Under the pieces are notes generated by a model, which worked only from the letters and a program-made list of their open reading frames with translations, was not told where the DNA came from and did no database searches. The position numbers and the translations under genes are program-made. Shown in pieces: positions 1,581-60,578 of a stretch of DNA of 64,000 nucleotides. Position 1 is the first letter of the stretch; the number at the start of each line of letters is the position of its first letter. Origin of the DNA: Octopus vulgaris (taxonomy: Eukaryota); the NCBI GenBank assembly GCA_951406725.2, contig OX597835.1, positions 4,154,001 through 4,218,000 of the forward strand, written 5' to 3'.

Positions 1581-2091
1581 GAACAATAGGAAAATATTTG
1601 TGGGTCAAGGTACCGTATTATCCTGTACGGACAAATAACACTGTTACAAAATTGAGTGGCTGCCTTATTGTAGCTTGCTCTACAGGTGAAATGCTCGGTG
1701 CTTATAGGAAGACACTATGTAATAGCGATCAGTACACATCTATTGATGGGTGCTACATCATTATTACTAAAATGTATGCACAGGATGCGCTGCAAGTCTG
1801 CATACATCTTGAAGCGCAATAAACATATGCGTCAAACACTCGTTGTTTACATGGTGAGAAACAGTACTATTGGCGAACACTGGTAAACGCCACTGTCTGA
1901 ATTCGTACAAAGCATGACTTTGGTAAGCCTAAAAACTGTCAATTAATCTCTAGGTCAGTGGTTCCCACTCGACCTTTACATTTTCCCTATCTCCAAATAC
2001 AGTAAACACATGCGTCATACGTTCGTCTGTTTACAGGGTGAGAAATGTGTTTCACAGACAGCACAATCGGCGAACAACGTAAAGCTATTTT

Positions 2092-2691
2092 GGCGAGCTG
2101 GCAGAAACGTTAACACGCCGGCCAAAATGCGTAGCCGTATTTCGCCTGCCGTTACGTTCTGAGTTCAAAATTCCGCCGAGGTCGACTTTGCCTTTCATCC
2201 TTTCGGGGTCGATAAATTAAGTACCAGTTACGCACTGGGGTCGATGTAATCGACTTGATCCGTTTGTCTGTCTTTGTTTGTCCCCTCTGTGTTTAGCCTC
2301 TTGTGGGTAGTAAAGAAATAGGTATTTCGTCTGCCGTTACGTTCTGAGTTCAAATTCCGCCGAGGTCGACTTTGCCTTTCATCCTTTCGGGGTTGATAAA
2401 TTAAGTAGCAGTTACGCACTGGGGTCGATGTAATCGACTTGATCCGTTTGTCTGTCTTTGTTTGTCCCCTCTGTGTTTAGCCTCTTGTGGGTAGTAAAGA
2501 AATAGGTATTTCGTCTGCCGTTACGTTCTGAGTTCAAATTCCGCCGAGGTCGACTTTGCCTTTCATCCTTTCGGGGTCGATAAATTAAGTACCAGTTACG
2601 CACTGGGGTCGATGTAATCGACTTGATCCGTTTGTCTGTCTTTGTTGTTGTTCCCCTCTGTGTTTAGCCCCTTGTGGGTAGTAAAGAAATA
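2092..2691 (+). mobile_element. tRNA-derived SINE family A, head plus 3 tandem ~184-bp units
   Basis: Head GGCGAGCTGGCAGAAACGTT, B-box-like GAGTTCAAATTCC, core GCCTTTCATCCTTTCGGGGTCGATAAATTAAGTACC (Nin/Deu-like, from recall). Units start at 2137, 2322 and 2506. Confidence 0.9.
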
Positions 2692-2950: not shown

Positions 2951-3422
2951 GCAGTTAAACATTGGGAGGTGAGGGGTCAATGTAATCGTCTTATCCCCTC
3001 CCTTGAAATTGCTGGCCTGGTGCCAAAATTTGAAATCAATATCAATTTTAGTAATGTCCGTCTTTTGAACTCTGCGTGTTGATACATTTTAGAAAGTTCA
3101 TTTATTGTTATTCTTCGTGCAAAACGTGTTTTGTTCATTATTTCCTCGGTGGTCAAGTTCACTTGTTGTTGTTCAAGGTGTCATTGCTTAAAACCTCTGA
3201 AGAGATAACGAAAAAAATTCCAAATGCAAACAAAATGACTTTGAAAGTATCAACCTTCCTCGTTTGTTTCGGTAAATAAACTTCGCGCGTTTGAAGATCC
3301 ATTCTGTCTCTTAATGTCACGGAGAAGTAAATGATTCAGTCTGAAACGGTAAAGGATACAGAAATTAGATGTCAGGGGCTGTCACGGGATAGCATCTTAC
3401 CATGGTAAGATACAACGACAAT

Positions 3423-3841
3423 AAGGTGGTGAGCTGGCAGAATCGTTAGCGCACTGGACGAAGTGCTTAACGGTATTTCGTCTGCCGCTACGTTTTGAGT
3501 TCAAATTCCGCCGAGGTCGACTTTGCCTTTCATCCTTTCGGGGTCGATAAATTAAAGTACCAGTTACGCACTGGGGTCGATGTAATCGACTTAATACCTA
3601 TGTCTGTCCTTGTTTGTCCCCTCTATGTTTAGCCCCTTGTGGGTAATAAAGAAATAGGTATTTCGTCTGCCGCTACGTTCTGAGTTCAAATTCCGCCGAG
3701 GTCGACTTTGTCTTTCATCCTTTCGGGGTCGATAAATTAAGTACCAGTTACGCACTGGGGTCGATGTAATCGACTTAATTCGTTTGTCTGTCCTTGCTTG
3801 TCCTCTCTGTGTTTAGCCCCTTGTGGGTAATAAAGAAATAG
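3423..3841 (+). mobile_element. SINE A, head plus 2 tandem units, with 18-bp TSD
   Basis: Second unit starts at 3658. Flanks GGTAAGATACAACGACAA (3404-3421) and GGTAAGATACAACAACAA (3841-3858). Confidence 0.9.
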
Positions 3842-6127
3842 GTAAGATACAACAACAACAGCAACAATCATTGGTTTTCTGTATCAGCCACAAGAGCTAA
3901 CAAGAGAGTTATACAATAGTTTTCAATGAACATTAAAAACATGGTTTACATATAAAATAGATAATTAAAATAATATATATAATTGTAATAATGACATACA
4001 ACCATTTATGGTCACCCATACAGAAACGGATGGGGACCGACTTGTTAGGTCCAGTCGAAGCGTCCCATGTTTCTGCTCACTCATCAAATATTGTGTATTT
4101 TTTTTCGCCGATCTTCAGAATCACCCCACGATATGTCTTGACTTGTTTTCTCCAGAAACGAACCTACATCTTCCGTGTAGAAATATTTTACTCGTTCATA
4201 AACTTTTCTTGTGGTCTTCACCAACGTTCGACCTGTTGAACACTCTACGTTGTACTGATTTAACTCTTGTCCCACCCAAACCCCCATATTGGTCGGTTTA
4301 CATTCCTTCGTTTATCAATTCGATCAATCCCTTGTTTCAAATAGTTTCCAAAATATAGTACTAAACGCAAAAAGTCTGCTGCTGACCCTAAAGAGGTTGT
4401 GAGGTATTAAATTTCTTTACTGAGTGTCAATACTATTCACCTGTGATAAGAGAGAAGAACAGCTAAAGGTTGACGGCTGGAACACAGGTGACTTAGTTCT
4501 GTATCAGAGCCACACTGACCAAATTCGATCCCCTTTTCTTTTCTTTCTTTGGCTGTTGATTTGTTTTGGTTCTGAGGAAGAAATCATTGTGCAGTGTCCC
4601 TATATGTTCAGTCAATTAATCGATCGAATTGAACCATGAATGCATCCAAATGAGTCTATAATAGATAAAGAAATAGATGTATATAACCCATTATTTTTTA
4701 CTTTTACATATAGATAGACAGATAAAACTTTAAATGCAGATTCTTTAACCTTGTACAAGTGACATTCTAAAGCAAAATCTATAAATACTGTATAATATTT
4801 TATCTTCTGGCAGACTGTATGGTGCAGAGTGAAGACGTCTTAGTAATTCTGTATATTCAAGAGGTTACCAACCAAGAGAAGGAGAGAGAGAGAGAAGGAG
4901 AAAGAAAGAAAGCGAGAGAGAGAGAAAGTACTTTTATCACTTTCCGTTGTTACAGCTCTGACACAGTCACGATTTATGCAAATATCTTCAGCTCTGATAG
5001 CATGTCACTGATCTGAACCTATTTCGTACCTTGCTTATATAATCTTTAAAATGTTGGATCGTTGTAACACCAGCTTCGGTATACAGTATACTTAGTAAAA
5101 CCGGAATTTAAATTATTTCTGAGATTTACTGAGATGATATTTTATGTGGAATAAAACACTGGAAATAAGGCAGAAGGCATGAGACACCAGGAATAAATCA
5201 CCAGAAATATGGCAGCTTCATGAAGACATCTCAAAAGAATCATACACGATACTGATTTTCAAGTAATGTCGATGTAAATATTTCAAAATAATGTATGACC
5301 TCTGGGAGTGTTAAAAGTCCTCAAAATGATTTTATGAATAGCAAATTATGTCGAATGAATGGGTCGCGTCACATTGTTATAATGGCTGTTGTACATGGAC
5401 GCAGCCATACAATTACGTGGCACTTGGGGGCGTTTACTGCTTCTGGTCAGCAAAAGCTGTGTAAATGCATGTGTGTAGCGGAAGCTGTGCGATATCACCG
5501 GAAGTACTGTAAATGTAATTCAAATAACAAGTTTGACACACAACAACGTCAGGTTGAATCTGACCGGAGATTGGATTAAGGGCTCTAATATATACGGAAT
5601 ACTCAGCCATATCTAAACACAGTAATCATCGAAAGCGACGGAGGATCAAAAAACTCAAATGTCTAGATGCACTGAAAATTTTAAAATAAAATGAGAATTA
5701 AATTGATTTCGTTTCTTCTTATTTAAGATTTCAAAAGTTTGGCGTCACAGAAGAACCAATTCCTTTCTTGTTCTAGTTGAAAGAAACAGTTCCTGTTCGC
5801 CCCAGTGTGTCTGTGGAATGGTGGATTTTAATAAAATTCTTAATACTTTCAAACAACACCATCCGACAGACACGCAGTCATTTCTATTCGGGTCTTGCGA
5901 CTGGCGTTGCCTTATTGTGCTATCGCTTTTGTTTTCACTTTAATAAACATGAAATTTGTCGAGAGAAAAACTAGAATGATGTGTTTGCATAAGTTTGAAA
6001 GATTTCGCAGCAGGACTCAATATGAAGCTTTTAATGTCTCTTGTTGCTAAGCATTCTTAACTGAGTGCCGAACAAATAGATTATTTCTATAAACTAAACC
6101 AAACTTCACAATCGACTATTATTATTA

Positions 6128-11884: not shown

Positions 11885-12245
11885 CTTTTCAGACCTGAAA
11901 TTTTGGGGGGAGGGTGCCAGTCGATTAGATCGACCCCAGTACGCATTTATCGACCCCGAATGGATGAAAGGCAAAGTCGACCTCGGTGCAATTTGAACTC
12001 AGAACGTAAAGGCAGACGAAACACTGCAAAGCCTTTTGTAAGGGTTGGCAGAAATCCTATTAAACACCCTTCTCCTTCTTCTTCTTCTTCTTCTCCTTCT
12101 TCTTTCTTCATTTTCTTCTTCTTCTTCTTCTTCATAATGATAATAATAATAATTATAATAATAAGGCGAGCTGGCAGAATCGTTAGCACGCTGGGCAGAA
12201 TGCTTAGCGGCATTTCGTCTGTCCGTACGTTTTGAGTTCAAATTC
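11885..12245. mobile_element. Head-to-head SINE A fragments (- at 11885-12050, + at 12164-12245)
   Basis: Family A body on the minus strand and a family A head on the plus strand, separated by (CTT)n(AAT)n. Confidence 0.75.
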
Positions 12246-17672: not shown

Positions 17673-18120
17673 AGAAAACAAACAGTTCAACTCCAACTCC
17701 AAAAAGTTCTACCCAGAACTTGGCAAGAATAAAATAGACATCACTGCCGCACCAACGGCAGAAGAAGTGGAAGAATTCTGGAAAGGAATATGGTCGGCGA
17801 ATGAACAACAAAAAAAAAAGGAGTATTAAAACAACAAACATAGCATCTGAGCAACTTTGGACCCCCATAACAACTGAAGAGGTCACCCAGGTACTGCAAA
17901 GACTAAGCAACTGGAAGGCATCTGGGCATGACAAGATCCCCAACTTCTGGTTGAAATATCTACCAGGAATGCACAAAAAGCTGGCTGAAAGCTTTAACAA
18001 CATACTGGCAGAGCCAGAGACAATGCCTGAATGGCTCACGAAGGGGAAAACCATCTTAATTCCCAAATCCAATGAGAAAGCAAAACCAGAAAACTACGAC
18101 CTATAACCTGTCTCCGTACA

Positions 18121-18924
18121 ATGTACAAAGCATTTACTGCAGTAATATCACAAAGATTAAACAAGCACCTGGACGAAAACAACCTGTTTCCAGAAGAGCA
18201 GAAAGGATGCCGCAAAGGCTCATACGGCTGTAAAGATCAACTAATGATCAATAAAGCCATAACTGAAGACAGCCACAGAAAGAAGAAAGGCCTCAGTATG
18301 GTCTGGATCGACTACAGAAAGGCGTTTGATAGCATCCCCCACACATGGATCCTCGAAACACTAGCCATTAACAAAGTAGCACCAACAATTATAAAATACA
18401 TAGGACACTCTATGAATAAATGGCAAACAGTGCTACAGCTCCAAACAAAAGAGGGACTCATGAAAACCAAAGCCATCCCCTTTAGAAGAGGAATATTCCA
18501 GGGAGACACGCTCTCTCCACTCCTTTTCTGCTTGGCACTGTCACCTCTATCTGATATGCTAAATAGAACTGGATGCGGATATAAATGTTACGGCAAAACG
18601 ATCAGCCACCTTTTATATATGGATGACCTAAAACTATACGCTGCAAATGACAAACAGCTGGAAACACTATTAAAGACAGTTCATGGATTCACCAAAGAAA
18701 TAGATATGAAATTTGGATTAGAGAAATGGGCCAAAGTAACCCTGAAAAGAGGAAAACTAGTTAAGAGTAGCAACATCACACTAGATAAAACCAATGAAAT
18801 AAAAGAATTAGACCAAAGCCAAACTTACAAATACTTAGGAATCCATGAACTAGATAAGACACAACACACACAAATGAAAGAGAAAATAAAAAAGAATATT
18901 ATAGACGAGTTAGATCAATACTAA
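18121..18924 (+). pseudogene. Reverse transcriptase core of the R4/Dong LINE (frameshifted at both ends)
   Basis: YMDD catalytic motif and QGDTLSP; frame breaks near 18098 and 18895. Confidence 0.93.
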
Positions 18925-19483
18925 AAACAGAGCTCAATGCTAAAAACAAGATTAAAGGTATTAACACTTTAGCTGTCCCAGTTATAAGTTACAGCTACAA
19001 TATCCTTAACTGGACACTAAATGAACTGACCAAAATAGATAGGAAAACAAGAAAAATAATGACAGGATCTAGGATGCATCACCCAAAATCTGACATAGAA
19101 AGACTATATATACAACGTATAGAAGGTGGTAGAGGCCTTATACAGCTGGAAAACTACTATAAAATAACCACCATAGGACTGCAAAAATATCTACTTCAGA
19201 AGGAAGGAAAACTGATACAAATAGCGGCAAAACACGAGCAAAACAAAAAACTGTTCTCAGTATTTAAGGAAGCTGACAAATACAAACAAGAAATCATACC
19301 ACCTAACAAATATGAAGAAGAAGAAGATGAAGAAACAACAAAAGCTATAAAACAAATGAAATCGAAACTAAAACTAGAACAGCAACGAACCATGATAAAA
19401 CGATGGCAAGAAAAGCTCCTTCATGGCAAATACTGGACTAAAATAATGCAAAAGAAATAGACAAAGAAAAATCCCAGCAATGG

Positions 19484-20074
19484 TTGAGAAGCTCAGGACT
19501 CAAAGCAGAGACAGAGGGATTTTTAATTGCAGCACAAGACCAAAGCCTCCCCACCAGAAATTACCAAAAACATGTAATGAAAAGAAATATAACAAGTAAC
19601 TGCAGAATATGTGGAGATGGACAAGAAACAATAAATCATATTATCTCTAGCTGCCCAGTCCTGGCTAAGAAGGAATATATTCACAGACACGACAGAGTTG
19701 GGACCTACATACACTGGAAGCTATGCCAACATTATGGAATAACAACAGAAAAAAGATGGTATAGGCGCACACCAGAAAGAGTCACAGAAAACGAGAAACC
19801 AACCATACTCTGGGATATGCCGATACTCACAGATAGAGAAATTAAGGCCAACAGACCAGATATAGTTGTCAGAGATCATGAAGAAAAAAAATGCTTTCTA
19901 ATTGATGTATCAATACCAGCAGATGACAACGTGTCTCTAAAAGAAATGGAGAAACTCTCAAAATACAAAGACCTGGAAATAGAGGTAACCAGAATGTGGA
20001 ATCTAAAAACAGAAACAATTCCTATCATAGTAGGTGCATTAGGCATGATAAAAAATATTCAGACAAATACATAA
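19484..20074 (+). pseudogene. Zinc knuckle plus restriction-like endonuclease of the R4/Dong LINE
   Basis: AAQDQSLPTRNY, CxxC..H....C, RHD, PD..D motif; frameshift near 20055. Confidence 0.92.
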
Positions 20075-20263
20075 CAAAAACACCAGGACTTACAAACACA
20101 TATAACATACAGAAAATTGCTCTACTAGGCACTGCACACATCCTACGCAGAACGCTTTCAATATAGTAACCATCAGAGCATCACAACAAATCACAGCACA
20201 TACCCAAGGCACACAGAGCTGCGCTCGGTAGTGAAGTGAAAGTACGCTATAAAAATAAAACTA

Positions 20264-20495
<232 letters not shown>

Positions 20496-26718: not shown

Positions 26719-26954
26719 TACCTATTTCTTTATTACCCACAAGGGGCTAAACATAGAGGGGACGAACAAGGACAGACAAAGGTATTAAGTCGATTACAAC
26801 GACCCCAGTGCGTAACTGGTACTTCATTTATCGACCCGAAAGGATGAAAGGCAAAGTCGACCTCGGCCGAATTTGAACTCACAACGTAACGATAGACGAA
26901 ATACCGTTCAGCATTTCGCCCGGCGTGCTAACGTTTCTGCCAGCTCGCCGCCTT
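26719..26954 (-). mobile_element. SINE A monomer with TSD
   Basis: Full head and body; CCTTTCTTCTACC at 26710-26722 and 26951-26963. Confidence 0.9.
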
Positions 26955-27649
26955 TCTTCTACCACAGTTGCAAAAATATCCACGTCATTAATAAATTATT
27001 TTTCATGCAATAATTTCTATCTAATTCTTCATGTGTTAATTATAGTTCATATTCTTTTTTACAATATCACGTTACAAATTGTTAGTAGTGAGCTAATTTA
27101 CAGACGGGTGAAGACGAACGTCTATTTTTCATCCCAGTGTGTCAATATTTAATTTCTTTAATAACCTCGTTATTGCAGTTTCACTTACACCTATACAAAC
27201 ACACACACAAACACGCGTTCACGAGCGTTGAAACCTGCAAACTTAGGCGCCCGTAAAGTCCACCCCTTCCACGTTAGCGAACAGAAAGTTTGATCTAAGG
27301 GAAATAACTCTATCTAAGGGAAACTACTCTCAACGGAATCGATCAAAGGGAGATAATTAGTAAAATACTAATATTCAACTTCGACAACGGACAGCATTCG
27401 ACAACGAATTCGAACGGAAATAAAATAATATTCCAATGTTTTTAATATGGAATGACGATGAGCAAAACTCTTTGCCTCCTTCTCTCTACAATAAATAAGA
27501 GATTGTTGTTCCTGTTGCTGTTTAGTTGCCAGTTTTCTGTGATCAGCTTCACTTAACGACATTAAAGAGATGATGATTCACTCATCTCTCTTCCACCCCT
27601 CCCGACACCCAAAAACACTGACACCCACCCAAGAGAGTTACTCTCTTCC

Positions 27650-28122: not shown

Positions 28123-28282
28123 ACACAAAAGACATCTACACGGTAGCACGGACCCCAATTTTGTTCCCTTCATCCAATATTCTCCGTCAATACTAACCAA
28201 GCAATTAGACACTCACTGGTGACCCTGGTATTACGTTCTAGTCACACATTCTATGTTTATAGTCTAATATTCTAACTTAATA

Positions 28283-28703
28283 CCTATTTCTTTACTATAC
28301 CCACAAGGAGCTAAACATAGAAGGGACAAACGAGGACAGACAAAGGGACTAAATCGATTACATCGACTCCAGTGCGAAACTGGTACTTACTTAATCGATC
28401 CCGAAAGGATGAAAGGCAAAGTCGACTTCAGCGAAATTTGAACTCAGAACGTAGCGGCAGACGAAATACCTGTTTCTTTACTACCCAGAAGGGACTAAAC
28501 ACAGAGAGGACAAACAAGGACAGACAAACGGATTAAGTCGATTACGTCTACCCCAGTGCGTAACTGGTACTTATTTAATCGACCCCGAAAGGATGAAAGG
28601 CAAAGTCGACCTCGGCGGAACTTGAACTCAAAACGTGACGGCAGACGAAATACGGTGACGCATTTCGCCCGGCGTGCTAACGTTTCTGCCAGATCGCCGC
28701 CTT
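28283..28703 (-). mobile_element. SINE A, head plus 2 units, with 14-bp TSD
   Basis: Junction GAAATACCTGTTTC near 28470; ATTCTAACTTAATA at 28269-28282 and 28705-28718. Confidence 0.9.
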
Positions 28704-31115: not shown

Positions 31116-31326
31116 TATGGAATTGTAAAATCATTTGTGAGCCAGTGATAATGATAATCATGACGGTTGTCTCAGATTCCGACCCAGGGGCCAGCAATTT
31201 TGACAATCGGGGGAGTAGTCGATACTATCGTCCCCAGTACTTGATTGGTACTTTATTTTATCGACCACGAAAAGATGAACGGCGAATGTGACTGCGGCAT
31301 GGTTTGAACTTCGAGCGTAAAGAGTC

Positions 31327-31811
31327 AAAGGATGAAAGGCAAAGTCGACCTCGGCGGAATTTGAACTCAGAACGCAGCAGCAGACAAAATACCTATTTCT
31401 TTACTACCCAGTAGGGGCTAAACACAGAGAGGACAGACAAGGACAGACACACGGATTAAGTCGATTATATCGACCCCAGTGCGTAACTGGTACTTAATTT
31501 ATCGACCCCGAAAGGATGAAAGGCAAAGTCGACCTCGGCGGAATTTGAACTCAGAACGTAACGGTAGACAAAATACCTATTTCTTTACTACCCACAAGGG
31601 GCTGAACACAGAGGAGACAAACAAGGACAGACAAATGGATTAAGTCGATTACATCGACCCCAGTGCGTAACTGGTACTTAATTTATCGACCCCGAAAGGA
31701 TGAAAGGCAAAGTCGACCTCGGCAGAATTTGAACTCAGGACGTAACGGCAGACGAAATACGGCTACGCATTTCGCCCGGCGTGCTAACGATTCTGCCAGC
31801 TCGCCGCCTTC
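31327..31811 (-). mobile_element. SINE A, head plus 2 full units and a partial third unit
   Basis: Junctions AAATACCTATTTC near 31392 and 31576 (184 apart); adjoins an older degenerate A copy at about 31170-31326. Confidence 0.9.
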
Positions 31812-32238
31812 GTCTATTAAAATTCCATCACAAACCATTGATCGAACCGGGACTCTAGTAGCAGAAAAGATTTACCCAAGGTGCTGCGATGTGGGACTGA
31901 AACCGAAACGACGTGGTTTGCAAGAGCGAACTCCTTAACCACATTCAGAGAAAAAATATAAAAACTATGTGTGTATGTTCTACTGTTTCTGTCACTCCCC
32001 GAGTTACTCGTTGGTAGTTGTTAAGACTATTATTCAATTACATTGTTTTTTTAGACAAAAGGAAGTCAGTAAAAATCTAACACCGACACAGTAAGACGAT
32101 CCGTTAATGACGGCGAGTGATTTGTTTGTTTGAGAAATTAGATTGTGCAAACACAATATAGTTAATAAAAATGACAGTTTTATTACCTGCTTGCCGATAC
32201 TTTACAAGCTTACCTGCCGAAATGTACAGTTTATGTAA

Positions 32239-33530: not shown

Positions 33531-33929
33531 CACACATACATATAGGAAGAAGACAGAAAGAAAAAGAAAGAAAGATGATGCAAATGAACACGCTTGGGCT
33601 TGATACATGCATATACACATGTAAATGTATATAGGGATATATATCGAGATAAGCAAAAATTGAATATAATCATCAGATGAACTTTCTCGCACAAGCATAT
33701 AACTATTTAGATATTTACAGAACAATAGATAGAATATGCATAAAGTCAAGAGCGTGTAACTCGTAGTGGATGCATGTAAACTTTACCGTTAAGCCGGCCT
33801 CCTTCTTCAGGGTGGAAAGACTGGCAATTAGTTGTATGTCATTACTATTACGTAATGGTGAGTGCTCAGAAACAGCTGTCGGACTTGAAATGCACCGGCC
33901 TTTCCCCCTGGTTTTCTGTATTTCATGTT

Positions 33930-34153
33930 TTTCCCCTCTATGTTTAGCCCCTTGTGGCTAAGAAAGAAACAGGTATTTCGCCTGCCGCTACGTTCTAAGT
34001 TCAAATTCTGCCGAGGTCGACTTTGCCTTTCATCCTTTAGGGATCGATAAATTTAGTACCAGTTACGCGCTGGGGTCGATGTAATCGACTTAATCCCTTT
34101 GTCTGTCCTCGTTTGTCCCTTGTGTTTAGCCCCTTGTGGGCAATAAAGAAATA
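33930..34153 (+). mobile_element. Headless SINE A multimer fragment
   Basis: Starts with the tail of one unit, then junction GAAACAGGTATTTC, then one full unit. Confidence 0.85.
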
Positions 34154-37684: not shown

Positions 37685-37941
37685 ATGATTGAAAAGCGAG
37701 AAAATTGTATCTCATTATATTATGATTTTATGCATGTATGTGTATATGTATATATACATATATGTATGTTTGTATGTATGTATGAATATATGTATGTACG
37801 TATGTATGTATTTATATATTTATGTATGTATGCATGCGTGTATGTATGTATGTGTGTATGTATGTATGTATGTATGTATGTATGTATGTATTTATATATT
37901 TATGTATATATGCATGCGTGTATGTATGTATATGTATCTTA

Positions 37942-38171
37942 TTTGCTTGTTGCCCACAAGGAGCTAAACATAGAGGGGACAAACACGGACAGACAACGGA
38001 TTAAGTCGATTACATCGACCCCAGTGCGTAACTGGTACTTATTTAATCGAACCCGAAAGGATGACAGACAAAGTCGACCTCTGCGGAATTTGAACTCAGA
38101 ACGTAACAGCGGACGAAATACCGCTAAGCATTTGGTCCGGCGTGCTAACATCTCTGCCAGCTCGCCGCCTT
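37942..38171 (-). mobile_element. SINE A monomer in a (TATG)n tract
   Basis: Full body and head ending GCCAGCTCGCCGCCTT. Confidence 0.9.
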
Positions 38172-38506
38172 GAATGTATATATATATGTATGTATGTATT
38201 TATGCATGCATGCGTGCTTTTATGTATATATGTATGTATATATGTATGTATGTATGTATGTATATATGTATGTATGTATGTATGTATGCATGCATGCATG
38301 CATGTATGTATGTATGTATGTATGTATGTATGTATGTATGTATGTATCTATGTGCTACGTGTGTATGTACGTGTATGTGTGTAGGAGTCGACTGTGTGTA
38401 TTTGAGTGTGTGTGTGTACGTGTGTATGAGCGAGTGTGCGTATGTGTGTGAGTGTGAGTGACTGTGTTTGTGTGTTTGAGTGTGTATGTAAGTAAATGTG
38501 TGCGTG

Positions 38507-55640: not shown

Positions 55641-56589
55641 ACACACACACACTCATGGTAAAGTCTATTTGCCAACGTAAGGTGGCAGTTCTGCTTAGGA
55701 CGTTTTTACTACTGTTTATCCCCAGGAAAACCTCTTTTCCAGCTGGCTACCGACACATCATCTGTGTTCGTATACTGTGAGTGCAAGGAGGTTAATGCTC
55801 CCCGTCCAGCATTAATGGTACCTACAGACCAATGGTGTCTGGGTAATTCACCTTTCCGCTCAGAGATTTTTAAACAATTGTGTGTGTGTGTGTTTGTGTG
55901 TGTGTTTGTGTGCGTGTATCATTCAACTACGGTAGTAATTGAATGATATTCTTAAGCCTCAGCTTCAGAGCATTGTCGCTAATTCAGTTCTTAACCAAAT
56001 GGGAAATTGTTCACATTTTTGAAGAGGACTGATCCCTAGCTACATTTTGGCATAAAAAAATAGAGATTTGGTCCAGTAGAAAAAAGTTTACATCAAAATT
56101 TGTAACAACATTATAGGAGAGTAAGTAACACCTCCAATGAAGTTTAGGTCTAAATAACTTTTTCATTTTAAAAGCAAAATATATTTACTTTAACTTCAAT
56201 GATAGAAGAAAGCGTCAAGAATTTCATAGTTTTAGTCCCATGCAGCAAAAACTTTGTATCAAAACTTTGTATCAAAACTTTGTATCAAAAAAATTGTGAG
56301 GTAAAATATATTGAAAAACAAAATAAGTAAGGCAAAAAATTGGATTTATGCATAATTAAATTTTTTATTTAAAAAACAAACAATATTTTAATTAAGTCTA
56401 AATGATAGACTTCAATTCGAGGAATTTCATGGTACAAATCACATGTAATGAAATTTTAAAAGAAAAAAGTTATGAGCGTTTGTTTCCCAAATTTGAGGGT
56501 GATAATACTTTTTTGAGAGTTCTATATTTTTTATTAATATATTTCTAGGGGACTTTTAATATATGTCATCGGCATCAAGACTTGCAGAT

Positions 56590-57354
56590 GCGTTAGCACG
56601 TCGGGCGAAATGCTTAGCGGTATTTCGTCTGCCGTTACGTTGTGAGTTCAAATTACGCCGAGGTCGACTTTGCCTTTCATCCTTTCGGGGTCGATAAATT
56701 AAGTACCAGATGAATACTGGGGTCGATGCAATCGACTTAATCCGTTTGTCTGTCCTTGTTTGTCCTCTCTGTGTTTAGCCCCTTGTGGGTAGTAAAGAAA
56801 TAGGTATTTCGTCTGCCGTTACGTTTTGCGTTCAAATTCCGCCGAGGTCGACTTTGCCTTTCATCCTTTCGGGGTCGATAAATTAAGTACCAGTTACGCA
56901 CTGGGGTCGATGTAATCGACTTAATCCCTTTGTCTGTACTTGTTTGTCCTCTCTGTGTTTAGCCCCTTGTGGGTAGTAAAGAAATAGGTATTTCGTCTGC
57001 CGTTACGTTTTGCGTTCAAATTCCGCCGAGGTCGACTTTGCCTTTCATCCTTTCGGGGTCGATAAATTAAGTACCAGTTACGCACTGGGGTCGATATAAT
57101 CGACTTAATCCCTTTGTCTGTACTTGCTTGTCCTCTCTGTGTTTAGCCCCTTGTGGGTATTAAAGAAATAGGTATTTCGTCTGCCGTTACGTTTTGCGTT
57201 CAAATTCCGCCGAGGTCGACTTTGCCTTTCATCCTTTCGGGGTCGATAAATTAAGTACCAGTTACGCACTGGGGTCGATGCAATCGACTTAATCCGTTTG
57301 TCTGTCCTTGTTTGCCCTCTCTGTGTTTAGCCCCTTGTGGGTAGTAAAGAAATA
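56590..57354 (+). mobile_element. SINE A, partial head plus 4 tandem 184-bp units
   Basis: Units start at 56620, 56804, 56988 and 57172. Confidence 0.92.
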
Positions 57355-59900: not shown

Positions 59901-60578
59901 CAGAGGTTGGACAAAATAGTGTAAACACTTTAATATTTCAAGCAAATTTATTTTAACATTGGGTAGGAAAACCTTTGGCTGTAATTACAGCATGAATTCT
60001 ACGAGGTACGGATTCATACAAAGCTTGAATTGCTTCCAAAGGAATTTTTGTCTATTCTTCAGCTAAAACTATCTCCAGTTCTTGTAGTGATGATGGTGGA
60101 GGATATCGACTCCTTGTTTTTTCTAAAATGCACCATAAATGTTCAATAGTATTGAGATCTAGGGACTGTAGTGGCCAGATAAGATATTCAACTTCACTAA
60201 AATGTTCCTCGTGCCATTCAGTAATAACTTTAGTTGTGTGAATTGGTGCATTATCATCCTGAAAGATTGCGTTTCCCTTTGGAAACAGTTCCGCAACCAT
60301 AGAATGAATCTGATCCGATAAAATGCTTAAATAGTCTTGACTATTAATTCTGCTATGAAGGGAAACAACAGGGCCTGCGGATTTCCAAGATACAGCTCTC
60401 CCAGATCATCACAGATCCTCCTCCATGTTTAACAGTTGGAAGAAGGGAATCTTGGTCATATGCGTCTTTTGGCTGTCTCTACACGTATACTCAGCCAGTG
60501 GTTGGAAATAGAGTAAAGAATGACTCGTCCCAGAAAATAACATTCTTCCACTGCTCTAGGGACCAATTTTGTAGGTTT
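59901..60578 (-). mobile_element. Tc1-superfamily transposon remnant (DD36E), 3' half with TIR
   Basis: Minus strand: WKNVIFWDES, PTVKHGGGSVMIW, FQDDNAPIH, WPLQSLDLNTIEHLW, PRRIHAVITAKG; several stops. TA followed by CAGAGGTTGGACAAAA at 59899-59916. Confidence 0.92.

Follow-up and report, generated by a model that had tools for sequence, protein, structure and literature searches.

A fixed junction in the short tandem chains of a tRNA-derived octopus SINE

How does a SINE come to stand in a genome as a chain of units, all joined at the same point behind a single promoter head? The question is raised by a locus of the 64 000-nucleotide stretch of Octopus vulgaris DNA analysed here (the window), where one tRNA-like head is followed by four headless units. 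The original prediction traced such multimers to the RNA or reverse-transcription stage, either through repeated template jumps on a loop closed by the SINE tail or through copying of a 184-nt circular RNA in a retrozyme-like cycle. The arrays are real and family-wide; most likely they arose by inheritance together with ordinary exchange.

Layout of the family in the window

The animal DNA of the window is rich in microsatellites and contains fragments of LINEs and SINEs. A BLAST search of it with head plus unit returned eight loci of one tRNA-derived SINE family (Table 1), which is short, non-coding, dispersed and of high copy number. In its architecture a single promoter head stands before a row of one to four units of about 184 nt. 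As predicted, no locus carries more than one head (8/8), with none doubled or internal. An internal junction is present at six of the eight loci. These six array loci had been named correctly, as judged by BLAST and TRF; the two monomers with a head and one unit (F and K, both on the minus strand) had been missed. TRF reported a period of 184 at 2137–2691 (3.0 copies), 3472–3844 (2.0) and 56619–57354 (4.0), and on the minus strand at 28279–28653 (2.0 copies) and 31327–31760 (2.4 copies). The exact 184-bp period claimed for the multimers therefore holds for five arrays by TRF but not for single units, the lengths of which are 182–187 nt. The longest array in the window has four units, and the sample used for unit comparisons consists of 16 full units at eight loci in this one 64-kb window.

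Table 1. Loci belonging to the SINE family within the window and features of array N
Feature	Positions	Strand	Description
Array A	2092–2691	+	Head and three units; flanking direct repeat of 6 bp only
Array B	3423–3841	+	Head and two units; target-site duplication of 18 bp
Monomer F	26722–26955	−	Head and one unit; target-site duplication of 13 bp
Array G	28283–28703	−	Head and two units; target-site duplication of 14 bp
Array H	31327–31811	−	Head, two units and 66 nt of a third
Locus I	33926–34153	+	47-nt tail fragment, junction and one unit; headless
Monomer K	37940–38172	−	Head and one unit, inside a microsatellite
Array N	56582–57354	+	Head and four units
tRNA-like head of array N	56582–56619	+	5′ part altered; A box degenerate
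Predicted 12-bp head hairpin of array N	56603–56630	+	−14.1 kcal/mol; loop 1 nt from the start of unit 1
Unit N1	56620–56803	+	Recombinant: 5′ half of sister-family type (block 56710–56715), 3′ half N4-like
Unit N2	56804–56987	+	Headless
Unit N3	56988–57171	+	Headless; three differences from N2
Unit N4	57172–57354	+	Terminal; ends at AAAGAAATA; without clear target-site duplication
Junction 14-mer N1/N2	56797–56810	+	Identical at 56981–56994 and 57165–57178

The A-box pattern was found in six of the seven heads (array N being the exception) and in none of the full units. The strict B-box pattern had no match, the site reading GTTCAAATTCC, which is one base too long, and ARAGORN found no tRNA. 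Most units are free of T4 runs; arrays B, G, H and N contain some. A CpG change creates a T4 run at the unit starts of H2 and H3 (31576 and 31392, minus strand), which is a possible Pol III stop directly behind the junction, and an RNA stopped there would end like that of locus G. The SINE tail was compared with the LINE fragments in this window and matched none. A broken LINE at 17738–20267 (+) carries RVT_1 and zf-RVT domains, ends in (AAT)n and has relatives at 42–75% identity; between the 3′ end of this LINE and the SINE tail there is no match. A DDE_3 transposase fragment lies at 60052–60405 (−).

Several copies of a sister family also occur in the window; the head and the first 115–120 nt are common to both families and the tail is different. 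Several sister copies are located in, or end in, (ATT)n runs, and sister pieces at 12171–12244 (+) and 11919–12036 (−) face apart across an AAT/GAA microsatellite. The partial third unit of array H runs directly into an old headless sister copy, and the head of this array adjoins a cut-off copy of another SINE family (31180–31326 and 31815–31940, minus strand). The head that the old sister copy once had may have been replaced by array H.

The junction and the ends of the copies

All internal junctions fall at one position (10/10), where AAAGAAA(T/C)AG at the end of one unit meets GTATTT(C/T)G at the start of the next. The 14-mer across the junction is identical in six of the ten and changed in the other four, by C for T in the tail arm (G and I) or by the CpG change (H2 and H3), so the invariance originally claimed for the junction applies to its position and not to its sequence. 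Changes affect 4/140 junction bases and 133/2924 bases in the units (Fisher p = 0.53); the junction is therefore without visible extra constraint. A splicing reading, in which the units start with GT and end with AG, was rejected by inspection: a purine-rich run precedes the last AG, and a better acceptor lies 27 nt upstream.

For a wider census of the junction position, contigs from two runs whose labels name different organisms, X10 and X8, were aligned to window positions 2070–2345. Matches were obtained for 73,511 of 6,579,193 contigs (X10) and 158,343 of 14,162,910 (X8). Among the best 15 of 182 contig joints, nine lead from the stub of a second unit back into unit 1, and the register is exact at the four of these nine that have filled intervening letters (2332, 2342, 2343 and 2344). 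The other six of the 15 are internal skips or lead back by 88–89, at a depth of at most 273, and the summed depth over the junction bin is 3.9–5.1 million. Indel rows at the junction amounted to 0 of 3 in the X10 and X8 contigs, for which some differences are uncounted. In X10, the loose ends that precede the start of the unit have the sequence of the tail; terminal tails have no entry among the loose ends listed, beyond which there are 635 further rows. The depth of the bin past the junction relative to the tail bin is 0.32 (X10) and 0.31 (X8), a rough floor only, as summed contig depth is not copy number; in the window the corresponding figure for tails is 10/17. One register thus dominates the contigs of both runs among the joints listed, as the original prediction required of a fixed junction, and such dominance in at least two organisms fits one old origin. 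In contig joints a circle and a genomic chain look alike, and X10, which is only guessed to be RNA, is silent on expression. Raw reads of X24, from another organism, matched in 21 of 12,895,792 cases; X18 (2 of 782,807 contigs matching) was left out of the evidence. Low-depth joints from 2255/2256 to 2168 (at most ten contigs) start exactly where the sister tail diverges, and the sister family, to judge from these joints, may sometimes be tandem too.

Dimers B and G and monomer F each lie within one target-site duplication (of 18, 14 and 13 bp), and these are the three of the eight loci at which a duplication is clear. That of array B (3404–3421 and 3841–3858, one mismatch) begins with GGTA, as does that of monomer F, and in both the GGTA is made up of the final tail letter and the opening three letters of a next unit. 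In array G the element reads AAATAGG and is followed by a duplication starting TATT, the GG not being in the target. The copies with clear duplications hence end 3–5 nt inside the next unit. Of the seven terminal tails in the window, three continue as GTA or GTATT (chance 2e-4); the remaining four (A, I, K and N) lack a run-on, stopping at AAATA, and have no clear duplication. From the ends of B, F and G, which run into the next unit, we infer that their template RNA already held the junction and that priming relied on microhomology of 4 nt, a short way into the next unit. If the enzyme merely preferred GGTA targets, B and F would be accounted for, but not G. Of what this analysis adds, the run-on ends are of greatest use.

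Unit differences and the origin of the chains

Units differ at a mean of 8.75 positions within arrays and 15.4 between arrays. Grouping by locus, which was to be weighed against grouping by position in the array, is seen in arrays A and N: the units of array A form a supported clade (95/87) containing A1+A2 (88/75), and N2+N3 form a fork (97/88). Clustering by position is absent, with 16.4 differences between first units, 14.8 between later units and 15.3 between first and later units. Of the 69 columns that vary within arrays, 13 match nine family-wide polymorphic alleles, where 1.5 would be expected (0/5000 simulations), in a test that assumes even mutation rates and in which the five alleles of the 5′ half include sister-family signal. 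The nine alleles are non-CpG, have shares of 0.14–0.25 in the contigs and were picked by the author from the 40 rows listed. The two tail types of array B recur in array G with their order reversed. N1 and N4 differ mainly in columns 23–98 (8/9 differences), which include the sister-family block, and are equal beyond; the block in N1 matches the contig loose-end consensus that leads to the sister tail. N2 and N3 share three states that differ from N4, one change is common to A1 and A2 but missing in A3, and rare alleles are shared in array A and in N2–N4. Such nested and mosaic patterns point to a crossover inside a unit (array N); units that started out identical could also have been mixed by gene conversion once inserted. 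Three of the frequent family polymorphisms, at unit columns 111, 157 and 180, are A/G on the sense strand, a pattern that could stem from A-to-I editing of the RNA prior to insertion.

The explanation that we hold to be reasonably probable is one founding duplication, followed by inheritance of chain source genes, priming at internal tails and in-register exchange of units. The fixed junction itself likely arose once and is inherited. The founding event would have joined the end of a tail to another copy at its GGTATTT site, which lies where the head hairpin has its tip, and a tail-arm match of 5–6 nt probably assisted; nested insertion would be one simple route. Because the A box is found in the head only and most units lack T4, Pol III is predicted to read through the whole chain from the single A box. 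A LINE reverse transcriptase would then prime at the tail of any unit, 0–5 nt into the next, by microhomology with the target. The resulting copies would have one head, at least one unit and often more, and a single target-site duplication around the whole. Unit number and the mix of haplotypes would change by in-register homologous exchange anywhere within the 184 nt, whether by unequal crossover, gene conversion or reverse-transcriptase copy-choice, with the level (DNA or reverse transcription) left unspecified, and this exchange would leave the junction untouched. The rare alleles common to A and to N2–N4 would speak against this account, as they fit copying from one template. So would the unmatched strict B box and the T4 runs of arrays B, G, H and N, the failure to find a partner LINE among the fragments in the window, and the four terminal tails that lack a run-on.

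Two claims about the stage at which multimers form have to be divided in this light. Chains do pass through RNA as chains, given the duplications around B, G and F and a template that already held the junction; that they are made anew in each array by looping or rolling is not supported, since these modes predict units identical at birth and the units differ (13 allele matches against 1.5, with nested patterns). Unequal crossover had been excluded on the ground that the junctions lack GCTTAGC. This objection is valid for the first dimer but lapses once two units exist, because exchange anywhere in the 184 nt then keeps the junction exactly.

Repeated self-insertion, which we regard as unlikely, would have the RNA end (tail plus GGUAUU) pair with a resident GGTATTT, so that the cDNA joins the upstream copy in register. 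Target-site duplications do begin with GGTA or TATT, letters of every head and junction, and self-insertion predicts mixed haplotypes and, as in array N, a recombinant first unit behind an older head. Against it, the eight loci contain no doubled or internal head, and the three units of array A have rare alleles in common. With this sample it is inseparable from the explanation preferred above.

A 184-nt circle could also be made without a ribozyme, by a host nuclease cutting between the two G residues of the junction and by ligation, and be copied round by a LINE reverse transcriptase, ending on a head-bearing RNA. Its fixed junction would lie at a hairpin tip, and 3′ run-on is natural on a circle. 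A different unit 1 is permitted, so that neither the recombinant N1 nor the dimers B and G conflict with it; B and G consequently do not test the circle. The later units mismatch in the three longer arrays (N2/N3 versus N4 at three sites, A1 = A2 versus A3, and H2 versus H3), and these arrays do not fit a circle without later conversion. Neither do searches for a ribozyme favour it. Rfam gave no match at gathering score in the window and none at E ≤ 10 on array N; on array H there was one unrelated chance match (E = 0.76), and CUGANGA is absent on both strands. The unit was thus rightly described as having no hammerhead, and the ribozyme scan proposed as a check found none in the window or in arrays N and H. 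Circular folds of three units were no better than those of shuffles (z = −0.91, −0.12 and +0.68), and the junction is not conserved beyond the rest of the unit. We therefore rate such a circle as very unlikely, and the same grade applies to a ribozyme-free, retrozyme-like cycle with gene conversion later blurring the units.

End-to-end jumping between RNA templates is behaviour of the R2 kind. Applied here, a cut at the head-hairpin tip would leave a 3′ fragment, and the enzyme would run off this fragment and land on the 3′ end of another SINE RNA. The single 5′ head, the mixed haplotypes and the position of the junction at a hairpin tip would all follow, but so would many headless copies starting with GTATTTC (0/8 found) and ragged junctions (0/10). 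A precise 3′ end is also needed, whereas three copies run past it, and we consider this route highly doubtful.

Looping on one RNA, in which the tail binds to the start of the unit and the enzyme enters that unit again, has a slighter chance still, at most as a growth step on existing chains. The hairpin on which the original prediction built (GAAATA-GG-TATTTC) cannot close over a loop of 2 nt; the predicted fold is marginal, with 5 bp, a 4-nt loop and an energy of 0.0 kcal/mol alone or −1.4 kcal/mol with flanks (ViennaRNA). The predicted head hairpin is longer than claimed, with 12–13 bp and −14.1 and −16.9 kcal/mol by the same program. Pairing of the tail at the re-entry point, made possible by the complementarity of GAAATA and TATTTC, has a probability of 0.000 in four of four head-plus-one-unit RNAs, where the head arm takes the site. 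In whole-chain RNAs, hairpins at their own junctions are predicted at 0.1–0.5, and in that of array N the head arm can pair with unit 3 (0.64, predicted). The claimed pairing survives in array A only, where the tail of unit 2 is predicted to pair with its own start (P = 0.49) and where the units share rare alleles; such a loop is predicted in one of five arrays. Looping would in addition give identical units, which are not seen in B, G, H and N. Finally, separate DNA-level duplication of a monomer at each locus, as in a nascent SINE-derived satellite, would agree with the locus clustering of A and N and has a precedent in the squamate sSat repeats as treated in the available part of PMC10702118, but it is extremely improbable, since independent origins would not share one junction and since monomer F and dimers B and G already end inside the next unit.

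Significance and comparison with known systems

In this high-copy SINE, chains rather than monomers are the usual mobile form and every unit has the full tail. One family thereby makes two things testable, namely where a LINE reverse transcriptase starts on a template with several internal tails and by which route a SINE becomes a tandem repeat; the 3′ run-on into the next unit indicates simply, from genomic sequence, where priming took place. Should circles exist, retrozyme-like amplification would extend to ribozyme-free elements, for which the odds are low on present evidence.

A family-specific 20-mer had no match in metagenome, viral or prokaryote contigs, and phage records gave no match. 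A core 22-mer was found at 121 metagenome loci, in SINEs of other animals, and in one chance prokaryote match, with homology to the 121 loci limited to about 40 bp. TRF detected no period of at least 100 in the 122 loci, in which short-read contigs may collapse repeats. The 121 loci belong to an abundant SINE family of other animals that has its own head region, several tails and the shared 40-bp block.

The published systems are compared here as they appear in the accessible portions of the sources. In the open literature covered, as distinct from subscription journals and repeat databases, no account of the chains of this family was found. A 2026 annotation of octopus repeats leaves most SINE families unclassified, and the portion of its text covered does not mention chains (PMC13282606). 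CORE, Meta, V and Deu are SINE superfamilies with a conserved central domain (PMC4824008), and the octopus OR1 and OR2 are named as CORE SINEs (PMC4824008, PMC4758252); one of the two supplementary files of PMC4824008 contained no match to the present family. In common with central-domain SINEs, as far as these texts describe them, it has a tRNA-like head, a central block also found in SINEs of other animals and exchangeable tails, as in the sister family.

What defines non-LTR retrozymes is that every unit contains a type I hammerhead (bioRxiv 10.64898/2026.07.22.740005). Their short tandem units of fixed register and similar size, their mostly few repeats and the dispersal of both monomers and multimers resemble the present chains as far as that text goes, whereas here no hammerhead was found (Rfam, CUGANGA) and a tRNA-like head is present. 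The squamate sSat1–3 consist of units from part of a SINE in variable number, of which one terminal unit is longer and extends as far as the end of the SINE; their long, homogenised arrays can comprise as many as 1000 units, show a subtelomeric bias and are regarded as having formed at the DNA level (PMC10702118). The jerboa Dip SINE multimers, as cited in the same paper, are made of full-length copies. The octopus chains share with sSat the tandem units from part of a SINE and the variation in unit number. Unlike sSat and Dip as reported there, they are short (at most four units in the window), dispersed and within target-site duplications.

The blood clam S. broughtonii has arrays of the form TSD1-(SINE)n-TSD1, in which a full-headed first copy and head-truncated repeats lie within one target-site duplication; about 3% of its high-scoring SINEs are tandem or palindromic, and the internal units lack part of the tail (PMC11481361). 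Arrays B and G likewise have one headed copy and headless repeats in one duplication. The present family departs from the clam arrays, as described in the portion available, in the frequency of the junction (six of eight loci), in the whole tail carried by every unit and in terminal copies that enter the next unit. The one-headed chain architecture is thus known from the clam, and the octopus family is, judged by its sequence, an unusual variant of known tandem SINEs.
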